Part shown: one piece after another, positions 59,041 through 62,674 of the stretch | Position numbering within the stretch: the stretch's first letter is position 1 | How the letters are laid out: each line of letters starts with the position of its first letter | Sequence record: LR597660 | Source: Escherichia phage T4_ev151 | DNA: 64,000 nucleotides | Direction: 5' to 3' (one strand) | The notes under the pieces: generated by a model | Seen by the model: only the letters and a program-made list of their open reading frames with translations | The model's database searches: none | What the model was told of the DNA's origin: nothing | Program-made: the position numbers and the translations under genes

Positions 59041-59316
59041 TTATTCTTTAAATCTAATCAATTTATTCATAGACTTTGAAACTTCTGCACGGACCTCATG
59101 TAGATTTTTGAGCTGTTCAAGACGCTGCGTATAGTAAGCAATTTCATCTTCTTCGAGACAGTCCTGCGAATCTTCTTTAAGATAACGTGCATAGTCCTGG
59201 AAAGCGTTACGGACTACTTCCTGGAAGTCATCAAGACTTTGAATTTTCTTAGGAGCAGTAGATACACGACGAGGGGCAGTATAATACTCATAACCAAACC
59301 CTGCGCTTAATTGAGC
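59041..59316 (-). CDS. small hypothetical protein (vs.3/vs.4 region)
   Basis: 91 aa from [13 protein letters not shown]. Confidence 0.4.
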
Positions 59317-59318
59317 CA

Positions 59319-59585
59319 TTAGTATTTTTCCTCTGGTTGGAACACTGCGCGACAAGCCCACATACTGGCTTCTTTGAGTTTCGTTTTAGCAATAGTTAAC
59401 TGATCGAGGCTTTCAGCATAATTCTTCGCGAATTCACAGTCTTCGCAATTATCTAGTGCTTCCCAGAATTCATCGTATAAAGCATCAAAGATAAGTCCTA
59501 AACGAACTTCAGCGTCTTTGATAGCATTCACTTTACCGATTTTCTCTTCAGTATGCGGCTTATAACCTTTAATGTCTTCAATCAT
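59319..59585 (-). CDS. small hypothetical protein
   Basis: start MIEDIKGYK with GAGGAAG RBS. Confidence 0.4.
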
Positions 59586-59799
59586 ATTTGACTTCCTCAC
59601 CAGTACATAAATCATATTCAACTAAACGAATAGGTTCATGAATGCCATATCCCTGAACAGAAATTTCTGTCGTAGGATAAATTCCACTAATATCACCCAT
59701 ATTCCACGCTTCATTAAATTGCTGTTCGCCTGAATTACTAAACCATTCTGCGAAAGCATTTAGCACATCTTTAGAACCTTCAATAATTATCTTTGCCAT
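59578..59799 (-). CDS. small hypothetical protein
   Basis: 73-aa ORF. Confidence 0.4.
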   Translation of the reverse strand: MAKIIIEGSKDVLNAFAEWFSNSGEQQFNEAWNMGDISGIYPTTEISVQGYGIHEPIRLVEYDLCTGEEVKYD

Positions 59800-60161
59800 T
59801 ACAGACTCTCAGTAAAGGTACGAGCGATAACGTCGCGCTGCTGTTCCGGAGTCAGAGAGTTAAAGCGAACTGCATAACCTGATACACGGATGGTCAGCTG
59901 CGGATATTTTTCCGGATGCTTAACTGCATCTTCCAGAGTTTCACGACGCAGAACGTTAACGTTCAGGTGCTGACCACCTTCAATTTTAACTGTAGGTTGT
60001 GGCTCAATTTCAATTTCACGGGCATGCAAACCATAGAAAATTTCTGGGTCTACAAAAGAGTCCTCTTTAAAGGTTTTAGAAACAATAATTCGTGCTTGAA
60101 TACCATCTTCAAAATAAATAGTACCTTTATGCGTGCCTTCAAGAATTTGATATGCTTTCAT
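59799..60161 (-). CDS. autonomous glycyl radical cofactor (GrcA/YfiD-like)
   Basis: 120 aa; C-terminal [59 protein letters not shown] is the pyruvate formate-lyase glycyl-radical module. Confidence 0.8.
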
Positions 60162-60168
60162 ATAAACC

Positions 60169-60498
60169 TCAATTAGAAAATAAATTTATCCAAGATTGTT
60201 CTTTAATTAAAAATGGCTCAGAATCATATGCCATTAAACTTTGCGTAATTAATCCTTTAAAAGGTCCATCAATAAATTCCATGGTAAAATATGGAATTTT
60301 ATTCATTAGCCGTGCATTAGGAGCAGTGCACAAAACTCTGCATCCTTTGAATACACCTTTTTGTAATTTGTATTGCTTGGGATAAAATTCGCTTAAAATG
60401 TTGTTATTTGCCAAAATTTCAAAATGATTCACCAATTTATTTTTAATAGTTTTTGGCGAAAAATAAAGATATTCGAAAAGCTGAGTGTCTGTCATCAT
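60169..60498 (-). CDS. hypothetical protein
   Basis: ORF trimmed at ATGA overlap. Confidence 0.35.
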
Positions 60499-61031
60499 TG
60501 CATTCCGATTACGAAAAACTGTGGACGAGTAATACCACCAATACAACATTTAATATTACAGCAGTAGTGTACAGTGTCAATATGGACGCTATAAATCTTA
60601 TCCATATCAGGAGATTTGACAGGCTCATCAATTATATACAAAATTCGCGAAAGCGATAAACCTCTGAACTTGCTTCCTTTATTACCAATAAAACTGCGCA
60701 CAGAATCAGTAAATAAACGAAAACGTATATCATTAGAATAACGCGAAAATTCCTTTTTAATGTTATTTGCAGAAATTTTAGCGTAAGCTGAAGTATTAGA
60801 AAGAACAATAACTGTTCCGCCATCATACAACCAATTAGCGGCAAAATTAGTTACTGCGGTTGATTTACCGGATTGACGTCCACCATCTAGTCGAAGTGTG
60901 CAATACTGCTTAAGTAAGTCTTCAAATGGTGGGATATATTCGTTTTTACAAATTTCTTCTACTCTAGCATCAGAATGGTGTGTAAAAGCATTCATCAGGG
61001 ATAGATAAGGACCAGTTAAAAATGTTCTCAT
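60495..61031 (-). CDS. small P-loop NTPase
   Basis: Walker A GGRQSGKST, Walker B ILYIIDEP; start approximate. Confidence 0.45.
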   Translation of the reverse strand: MRTFLTGPYLSLMNAFTHHSDARVEEICKNEYIPPFEDLLKQYCTLRLDGGRQSGKSTAVTNFAANWLYDGGTVIVLSNTSAYAKISANNIKKEFSRYSNDIRFRLFTDSVRSFIGNKGSKFRGLSLSRILYIIDEPVKSPDMDKIYSVHIDTVHYCCNIKCCIGGITRPQFFVIGMQ

Positions 61032-61184
61032 TTTATTCTCTCTAAATTTGGGCCATTCCATGGCGCATGAATTGTCCATTTCTGTATTTACCCATTACCG
61101 CACTTGGGCTCGACCTTATTACAGGTTGGCGGGAATCCCTCATAGAATCATGAGGTCCAGCTTGTTCCCATATTTCTTATTTGC

Positions 61185-61658
61185 TTATTTGAATGATTTG
61201 ACGTACTGAATAGAGCCTTTGCTATTCACAAAGGCAATTTTACCATTTTTATTATACATGGTAGCAGTACGCTGATAACCATAAGTTTGTTTACCAGATT
61301 GATAACCAACTAATGCAAAATTATCTTCGCCCATTTTATTCTGTTTAGCGCGGATGCGTTCATGGCCATGTGCCATAAGAACCTTAGCATCACCAGTTGC
61401 AATGGATCGACGAGTTTTTTCATCTTCAACTGTATTAACAAAGTCGTCAAATGAATCAAATTTAGCATGAGATTTATTATACAGTTTTCCATCTACTGCA
61501 TAATTATATCCCTGTACATCCATCTCAACTTCTGTACCATCATCCAATACAGCAGTGATTTTTTGACCTTTTTTAAATTTCAAAAGATCAGTAAAAGATT
61601 CAGCAATAATTTGAGAATTAATAGCTGCTTCAGTAATAAATTCTTGATATGTTTTCAT
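61185..61658 (-). CDS. hypothetical protein
   Basis: 157-aa ORF. Confidence 0.45.
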   Translation of the reverse strand: MKTYQEFITEAAINSQIIAESFTDLLKFKKGQKITAVLDDGTEVEMDVQGYNYAVDGKLYNKSHAKFDSFDDFVNTVEDEKTRRSIATGDAKVLMAHGHERIRAKQNKMGEDNFALVGYQSGKQTYGYQRTATMYNKNGKIAFVNSKGSIQYVKSFK

Positions 61659-61667
61659 ATGTTTCCT

Positions 61668-62084
61668 TTAAATGTAAATATTTTTGCCGTAATACTTGTA
61701 CCAGTGTGGCTTCATTAAAATTTTTTCATCAAGTCGTTGTTGACTCAATTTAATAGCTGATTTGCATGGATTATAATCATTTTTCCATTCTGCTGGAATA
61801 TCGCTGATGTCAGGAACTTCAGTATCTTTTATACTGAACCCGCGTTTTAAGCATTCCGTTATAATGTCTGATTGACGCTTTCGCAAAAATTCTAACTTAT
61901 CGTAAAAGAAAGTAACATGACCAGAACCTAAAATAAACTCGGAAGATATTTTAAAATCTTTAACCCGCTTACCATTTGCAACATGTTTACGAACTATACC
62001 AAAAACACGCGGCAATTCACGGTATTCTGCGATTAAATGTTGATCAGCAAGTTCAGATACTAAAGTCAAATTAATACGAGTCAT
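61668..62084 (-). CDS. denV: endonuclease V (pyrimidine dimer DNA glycosylase)
   Basis: 138 aa; [17 protein letters not shown]...YKYYGK. Confidence 0.9.

Positions 62085-62143: not shown

Positions 62144-62674
<531 letters not shown>

Follow-up and report, generated by a model that had tools for sequence, protein, structure and literature searches.

A stand-alone relative of the terminase ATPase core encoded by vs.8 of a T4-like phage, and a conserved leader element upstream of the gene

The vs.8 gene of T4-type phages was recently described by Evans et al. (Nat Commun, Aug 2026; PMC13601566) as encoding a terminase-like ATPase that is toxic on co-expression with the terminase sensor EcAvs2; the text leaves unstated whether the tested vs.8 came from T4 or from the T4-like phage PhiC120. 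The same report noted that Vs.8 is homologous in sequence to the T4 terminase's ATPase domain, the motifs Walker A and B included, and presented an AlphaFold 3 model (interface predicted template modelling score, ipTM, 0.84) that puts Vs.8 in the EcAvs2 sensor pocket at the site occupied by that domain of the terminase, the bridging ATP being kept. The toxicity and the pocket model together argue that host immunity reads Vs.8 as a terminase look-alike. We have analysed a 64,000-nucleotide stretch of Escherichia phage T4_ev151 (sequence record LR597660; this whole stretch is called the window below), in which a minus-strand gene at positions 60495-61031 is, by its sequence, the ortholog of T4 vs.8 (NP_049732). 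The gene, its terminase-like ATPase nature and its Avs2 link are already known; the terminase relationship presented here was derived independently of the published report and confirms it. A conserved leader element directly upstream of the gene is new as far as could be found, and it is the part that most deserves separate attention.

Two other non-terminase activators of Avs2, Ksap1 and Ksap2, resemble Vs.8 in being small, lineage-restricted phage proteins, and they likewise set off Avs2 when co-expressed with it, with a predicted position in the terminase pocket (Bechon et al. 2024; Evans et al. 2026, PMC13601566). Vs.8 is among the very few phage proteins besides terminase known to set off a terminase sensor, and it is the only one of the three non-terminase activators that has been reported to be homologous to the terminase ATPase domain. 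For this reason it provides a compact probe of what Avs2-type receptors read, and of whether phages counter pattern-recognition immunity with proteins that resemble their own conserved ones. The overall reading put forward here, to which we assign a probability of roughly 0.55, is that the window carries a T4 vs.8 ortholog whose product is a single-domain P-loop ATPase and a stand-alone relative of the ATPase core of the T4 large terminase, gp17.

Vs.8 and the terminase ATPase core

The window protein is 98% identical to T4 Vs.8 (175 of 179 aligned residues), from which it differs by three substitutions and a one-residue deletion, and its residues 3-178 match PHROG 1488 ('unknown function') with E = 1.5e-78. 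The gene occupies the same place upstream of vs.7 and vs.6 as in T4, and it follows the same leader sequence. A first-pass annotation, made from the letters alone, had proposed a small stand-alone P-loop NTPase of about 180 residues at this site, with the motifs GGRQSGKST and ILYIIDEP and no other recognisable domain, in the regB-denV block that corresponds to the T4 vs.3-vs.8 region. This description was accurate throughout: the coordinates are exact, both motifs can be read in the sequence, no Pfam or NCBIfam family is matched above threshold, and the T4 ortholog places the gene in the region named. Two features go beyond that annotation, namely the terminase-type character of the P-loop and the correspondence to a named T4 gene that figures in the 2026 Avs2 paper.

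The residues G50-G-R-Q-S-G-K-S57 follow the Walker A pattern GxxxxGK[ST], L131-Y-I-I-D135-E136 follows the Walker B pattern of four hydrophobic residues and an aspartate (hhhhD) with a catalytic glutamate, and Vs.8 has a RecA-like alpha/beta fold. Homology to the ATPase core of the T4-type large terminase subunit (TerL) was found by aligning a profile of the Vs.8 family with a profile of 24 T4-type TerL ATPase domains in hhalign, which covered 122 columns, brought the motifs into register and gave 97.3% probability and E = 2.2e-11 (for the residues that pair with gp17, see Table 1). PHROG 2 (terminase large subunit) matches Vs.8 itself at E = 3.8e-6 and is matched by 17 of 29 Vs.8 family members (best E = 2e-7), and weak, sub-threshold matches to Terminase_6N were seen in 11 of the 29. 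The weak Pfam and NCBIfam matches of the individual protein were to generic AAA models and to Terminase_6N, the latter covering only residues 50-87 and reaching 15.1 bits against a gathering score of 22, and a profile search of PDB sequences returned marginal matches only (E of at least 0.06).

Vs.8 also differs from gp17 (PDB 2O0H; Terminase_6N). It is only about 16-21% identical to gp17 and has 178 residues rather than 610; the family has no conserved equivalent of the adenine-binding Gln143 of gp17; and Vs.8 lacks lid subdomain II, the C-terminal RNase H-like nuclease domain and the portal or small-terminase contacts. The chain ends at residue 178 after the last core strand, and family members are mostly 157-185 residues long. 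From the model and the order of the motifs, the end of Vs.8 appears to fall right after the beta-strand (FFVIGMQ) whose gp17 counterpart runs into the coupling (C) motif. Because the Pfam threshold is missed and two defining domains are missing, Vs.8 is not a terminase; it is a relative of the terminase ATPase core, corresponding to the N-terminal subdomain I of gp17. From the RecA1 domains of superfamily 2 helicases (DDX1, Mfd, RIG-I, ZorD and others) Vs.8 differs in having neither a second RecA-like domain nor helicase motifs beyond I and II, and its sequence profiles point to terminases rather than helicases.

The kinship with gp17 could also be read as a sign that Vs.8 modulates packaging through gp17 or the small terminase gp16, for example by forming mixed or poisoned motor rings, in T4 or in competing phages. 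Homology that spans the ATPase core of gp17 and takes in the residue paired with its Arg-Gly is in keeping with this idea, but with so low an identity to gp17 the subunit interfaces are unlikely to be kept in Vs.8. The gene also belongs to the accessory vs/regB region, at a distance from the genes for packaging, and T2 packages normally with a broken copy. A role in packaging is improbable in view of the low identity, the distance from the packaging genes and the strong purifying selection described below.

When 1.84 billion cluster representatives were searched exhaustively with a profile, only 50 members of the Vs.8 family were retrieved at E <= 0.001, most of them 140-185 residues long. None of these 50 representatives shows an informative domain fusion or carries any further domain, and the family is narrow, phage-specific and made up of stand-alone proteins. 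In 20 homologs, reaching down to 40% identity, three blocks are invariant: D49-G-G-R-Q-S-G-K56, R123-G124 and I133-I-D-E-P137. The Arg-Gly pair sits 12 residues ahead of Walker B, and R123 is a candidate arginine finger. Within the core family the Asp-Glu of Walker B does not vary, and only a distant subgroup has lost it. In the distant members P0056, P0057, P0061 and P0064 the Walker B glutamate is gone, the Walker A lysine is replaced by histidine (R-[RQ]-[ST]-G-H-[ST]) and the proteins end in ...E in place of ...GxQ; this subgroup may be a non-catalytic branch.

One segment of Vs.8 is specific to close Tequatrovirus relatives. Residues 150-163 (about 60543-60584) form a loop rich in histidine and cysteine (H150, H155, C157, C158, C162, C163), which other homologs replace with unrelated sequence and which is modelled with a predicted local distance difference test score (pLDDT) below 50; a metal site or disulfides are possible there. 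A Pfam 'conotoxin' match to Vs.8 stems from this Cys-rich, low-confidence loop and was dismissed as spurious.

A tblastn search found vs.8 in 1,010 phage records, and in 1,007 the coverage was at least 80%; the records come from T4-like phages of Escherichia, Klebsiella, Shigella, Enterobacter, Yersinia, Salmonella and others. The pairwise ratio of nonsynonymous to synonymous substitution rates (dN/dS) against orthologs is 0.07-0.28, and the gene is under purifying selection. These data bear directly on the suggestion that Vs.8 is a decaying, functionless remnant of a duplicated terminase gene whose motifs are merely inherited. The truncated architecture and the fragmented copies in T2, SV76 and Lutter would suit such a history, but the dN/dS values, the full length in 1,007 of the 1,010 records, the catalytic residues that stay invariant down to 40% identity and the family-specific conserved features at both ends of the protein (an N-terminal helix and a C-terminal hhhhG-x-Q end) do not. 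The remnant reading is already contradicted by the selection and conservation data, and it is barely credible.

The T2 copy (L063 601-1133) gives a tblastn match in three pieces, and only a 110-residue C-terminal open reading frame (ORF) is annotated there; the entries for T2 Vs.8 in BFVD are likewise fragments, of 57 and 110 residues. Either vs.8 is dispensable, at least in that laboratory lineage, or the T2 record contains sequencing errors.

The start codon requires comment, as public models of the gene differ. The longest possible reading in the window starts with the ATG at 61079 and would give 194 residues; it was rejected on the grounds that homologs begin with M-(R/K)-T-F-L-T and that the upstream extension has no conserved frame. 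The homolog N-termini, together with an 8-nt indel in the T4 leader, support the start that yields 178-179 residues. The public T4 model (219 residues; NC_000866 64253-64912, L002 5254-5913) and the AR1 model (195 residues; L001 3396-3983) are over-extended into the leader. Where the leader contains tandem copies of its core, gene callers produce long false N-terminal extensions of vs.8, as in P0033 at 246 residues. Functional labels in GenBank are also inconsistent, orthologs of vs.8 and vs.7 being called 'endoribonuclease', which apparently spilled over from regB, or 'terminase large subunit'. The start codon of vs.8, the removal of its stray labels and the identity of Acb2 and TadIV-1 in the window (see below) are the gains for annotation.

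Possible roles of Vs.8

The family features suggest that Vs.8 would bind ATP-Mg and hydrolyse ATP. Hydrolysis would probably occur only upon self-association, since a lone RecA-like domain needs an arginine in trans, for which R123 is the candidate. The protein would be unable to cut, package or translocate DNA. As to its native role, our tentative proposal is counter-defence through terminase mimicry, in which Vs.8 would occupy or mislead terminase-sensing receptors. Evans et al. (PMC13601566) speculated that activators of this kind may serve anti-defence and that Avs2 evolved recognition of them. In favour of mimicry, vs.8 heads a gene run that ends in the sponge genes Acb2 and TadIV-1, and the protein diverges faster than neighbouring enzymes, with 45% identity at locus L013 compared to 62-78% for RegB, e, denV and Vs.6. 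The possible dispensability of the gene in T2 also counts in its favour.

Several points weigh against this view of Vs.8. The sole functional datum is the activation of an immune sensor, an outcome harmful to the phage, and the authors of that work describe the part played by vs.8 in EcAvs2 activation during infection as untested (PMC13601566). A second study (PMC13243611; Nat Commun, April 2026) tested Vs.3 to Vs.8 individually, driven by what its authors call the vs.8 promoter, and type IV Thoeris was impaired by Vs.3 alone of the cloned region's genes. That Vs.8 binds and hydrolyses ATP and oligomerises is itself a prediction. A passive decoy would need neither a catalytic glutamate nor an arginine finger, yet both residues are invariant, which points to real enzymatic work. 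Early expression of vs.8 is assumed from T4. No sigma-70-like promoter was found directly upstream of vs.8, that is, between Ip4 and vs.8 and including the window-type leader, so vs.8 may be reached by read-through transcription.

The single-gene tests bear on another idea as well, that Vs.8 acts on or binds small-molecule nucleotides, as a kinase or a signal-nucleotide sponge would, beside Acb2 and TadIV-1. The presence of a P-loop and of two nucleotide-signal sponges nearby would be compatible with it, but among the cloned-region genes tested singly only Vs.3 had an effect on type IV Thoeris (PMC13243611), and we regard this idea as highly improbable.

An alternative is that Vs.8 works autonomously as an ATP-driven enzyme on a substrate of its own, for example in nucleic acid or protein remodelling, possibly acting with Vs.7, and that its recognition by Avs2 is an accidental by-product of the terminase fold. 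The Walker A lysine, the Walker B Asp-Glu and the Arg-Gly are all invariant, as in a working ATPase, and BFVD contains many similar proteins of 140-180 residues from unrelated large phages, all of them uncharacterised. The stop codon of vs.8 overlaps the start codon of vs.7 (ATGA at 60498-60495), which suggests translational coupling and a two-protein unit, and vs.7 is next to vs.8 in most lineages. On the other side, no second domain, substrate-binding module or known partner was identified, a single RecA-like domain of 178 residues has no obvious translocation or unwinding apparatus, and several lineages that keep vs.8 are without vs.7. We would give this alternative somewhat less than an even chance, and mimicry slightly less again.

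The leader element upstream of vs.8

Directly upstream of vs.8 lies a non-coding stretch of about 135 nt that is near-identical in the window, T4, AR1 and two IMG/VR phages, whether Ip4 or denV precedes it. Over 121 nt the leader diverges by 1.7-4.1% between phages whose vs.8 genes differ at 12-45% of synonymous sites, and the 8-nt indel in the T4 leader rules out a shared reading frame. In distant T4-like phages a 31-nt core, CCTGTRANAAGGYCNAGCCMNAGYGCGRTAA, is kept, with flanks that change compensatorily.

The leader core can be drawn as a three-way junction. When 25 distinct sequences were scored, 91.6% of the cells were paired compared to 80.6% in shuffles, and the covariation score was 0.255 compared to 0.087, a value matched by 0 of 500 shuffles; these figures were obtained on the same sequences from which the structure was derived, and they reflect few independent evolutionary events. 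All versions in which the junction was shifted by 1-3 columns collapsed. Changes on both sides of a pair occur in three P1 pairs and in the closing pair of P2. A long form of the leader, present in 15 T4-like phages, was fitted with a hand-derived structure of 25 pairs, which is 94.6% paired and shows compensatory changes in four helices; RNAalifold folded the core of the long form differently, and the hand-derived structure was tested explicitly. The folding signal of the single leader sequence (z = -0.26) was uninformative. G-U pairs that are invariant indicate an RNA on the vs.8 sense strand, and the core is predicted to be a covarying RNA-like element.

A covariance model of the core (R1) finds a single copy in the 64-kb window, at 65.8 bits and E = 5e-21. 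The same model finds the core in each of 14 related loci, and no copy in the most divergent locus, L023. Two of the 14 loci contain in addition a second, diverged tandem copy with a different P3 sequence, L014 (3768-3816 and 3882-3928) and L042 (5203-5251 and 5092-5138), these second copies scoring 39 and 30 bits. By blastn the core is present in 1,084 phage records from several families, not all of them of T4-like phages; two such exceptions are the rV5-like phage FV3 and the 45-kb phage Ivi, where it is again intergenic and a sigma-70-like promoter follows. The leader is not strictly tied to vs.8, since in L044 it stands ahead of an Ip4-like gene. If it proves to be a functional RNA, it would be a new and widespread phage RNA motif.

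Several known identities were considered for the leader and set aside. A search of Rfam 15 gave no match to the leader at E <= 1 over 6 kb, and at E <= 10 no relevant match to 171 nt of the window or to 211 nt of L011; ARAGORN found no tRNA or tmRNA. A micro-ORF was rejected because the one frame in which variation falls mainly on third codon positions has no start codon in FV3, another frame has stops in L003 and L021, and the 3' half is in different frames between phages. Mimicry of a host sequence was rejected after neither E. coli genomes nor the genomes of 185,579 species (one genome per species) gave a match; 13 loose-pattern matches reach at most 20 bits, close to the number expected by chance on our estimate. 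A link to Ksap1 was rejected in that the Ksap1-bearing Dhillonvirus SECphi18 has no copy. The core sequence was not found printed in the literature searched, and one public record labels it 'terminator'.

The closest described elements are the PeSL promoter/stem-loop cassettes of T4-type phages (Arbiol 2010; Comeau 2014), which, like the leader, occupy intergenic, plastic regions ahead of accessory early genes. The long leader form holds a PeSL-like TTTACA-N16-AATTAT, which resembles the PST/T4 PeSL promoter consensus TTTACW-N17-TAYWAT. PeSLs, however, are simple AT-rich stem-loops found at multiple sites across the plastic regions of a genome, whereas the leader is single-copy in the window, relatively GC-rich, has several covarying helices and long invariant unpaired stretches, and is also found in non-T4-like phages.

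The two subjects can be joined in one speculative model, which we consider unlikely as a whole. In this model, Vs.8 would be a terminase-ATPase mimic made before the real terminase, pre-occupying or desensitising Avs1, Avs3 and Upx, whereupon Avs2 would have evolved in response so as to be triggered by it; the leader would represent a phage-only class of structured RNA that controls or processes the counter-defence transcript from vs.8 to vs.3.

Gene order and neighbouring genes

The genome around vs.8 is T4-like (Tequatrovirus, RB32/AR1-type); 877 phage records match positions 60100-61700 by megablast, with identities of 96-97% for the best. On the minus strand the genes run e, denV, Ip4, vs.8, vs.7, vs.6, a 73-residue ORF, vs.4, vs.3 and regB (Table 1). 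The first-pass annotation had placed the P-loop gene between the GrcA-like gene and denV, which is right as to order; the gene adjoins neither landmark, with vs.7 intervening on one side and Ip4 on the other. The position of vs.8 between the denV/internal-protein genes and regB is kept in T4, AR1 and the IMG/VR loci retrieved with the Vs.8 profile.

Table 1. Features of the window discussed in the text
Feature	Position	Strand	Description
e	62144..62638	-	first gene in the order given
denV, endonuclease V	61668..62084	-	ORF translation; annotations of matching records; related loci matched by tblastn
Ip4, internal virion protein (DUF7412)	61185..61658	-	Pfam DUF7412, E = 5.7e-96; PHROG 3155; AR1 annotation
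Conserved non-coding leader	61032..61169	-	about 135 nt, directly upstream of vs.8
Leader core	61086..61134	-	49 nt; predicted three-way junction, P1 enclosing hairpins P2 and P3
vs.8	60495..61031	-	ATG at 61031; 178 residues plus stop; stand-alone terminase-type P-loop ATPase core
Walker A (P-loop) of Vs.8	60858..60884	-	residues 50-58, G50-G-R52-Q53-S-G-K56-S-T58 (GGRQSGKST); terminase-type Arg-Gln; aligns with gp17 161-SRQLGKT-167
R123-G124 of Vs.8	60660..60665	-	invariant columns; pairs with gp17 R245-G246 (hhalign 'kfRGlSl' / 'avRGnSf')
Walker B of Vs.8	60621..60644	-	residues 130-137, I130-L-Y-I-I-D135-E136-P137 (ILYIIDEP); aligns with gp17 D255-E256
vs.7	60169..60498	-	109 residues; PHROG 2049
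vs.6, GrcA-like glycyl-radical cofactor	59799..60161	-	Pfam Gly_radical, E = 2.8e-18; AR1 and T4 annotation
73-residue ORF	between vs.6 and vs.4	-	
vs.4 (Acb2, assigned by similarity)	59319..59585	-	Pfam Acb2_Tad1_hairpin, E = 7.1e-20
vs.3 (TadIV-1, assigned by similarity)	59041..59319	-	long 92-residue form; 98.9% identity to T4 Vs.3

The arrangement of the window, e-denV-Ip4-vs.8, is of the RB32/AR1 type, whereas T4 has e-ipIII-ipII-denV-vs.8, so that denV adjoins vs.8 in T4 and is separated from it by Ip4 here. The internal-protein genes swap around denV between the two arrangements, and the vs.8 leader is unchanged. Just upstream of e, on the minus strand, there are two exact T4 late-promoter boxes (TATAAATA) at 62652-62659 and 62665-62672, the only ones within the last 8 kb of the window.

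The vs.7 gene follows vs.8 in most related loci and is missing from several, such as L003, L004, L019 and L024; in these lineages a homolog of the 73-residue ORF follows vs.8 directly. Only 9 homologs of Vs.7 were found, and its AlphaFold2 model (pLDDT 61; predicted template modelling score, pTM, 0.48) is too poor to be used in a fold search.

The first-pass annotation had pointed to the two ORFs at the far end of the gene run as candidates for a cyclic-nucleotide sponge and had called for their alignment with T4 Vs.4. The suggestion turned out to apply to both, and more fully than expected. The vs.4 product is 100% identical to T4 Vs.4 and scores 71.4 bits against the Pfam Acb2_Tad1_hairpin cutoff of 27, a match that identifies it as Acb2, the sponge for the cyclic oligonucleotides that serve as CBASS signals. 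The vs.3 product has its 98.9% identity to T4 Vs.3 over 92 residues, which identifies it as TadIV-1 in the long form. T4 Vs.3 was shown to be TadIV-1, which acts as a sponge for N7-cADPR, the signal of type IV Thoeris, and the long form (over 80 residues), with its required N-terminal region, is the functional one (PMC13243611). The genes for these two different immune-signal sponges adjoin in the window and have one base in common, at 59319.

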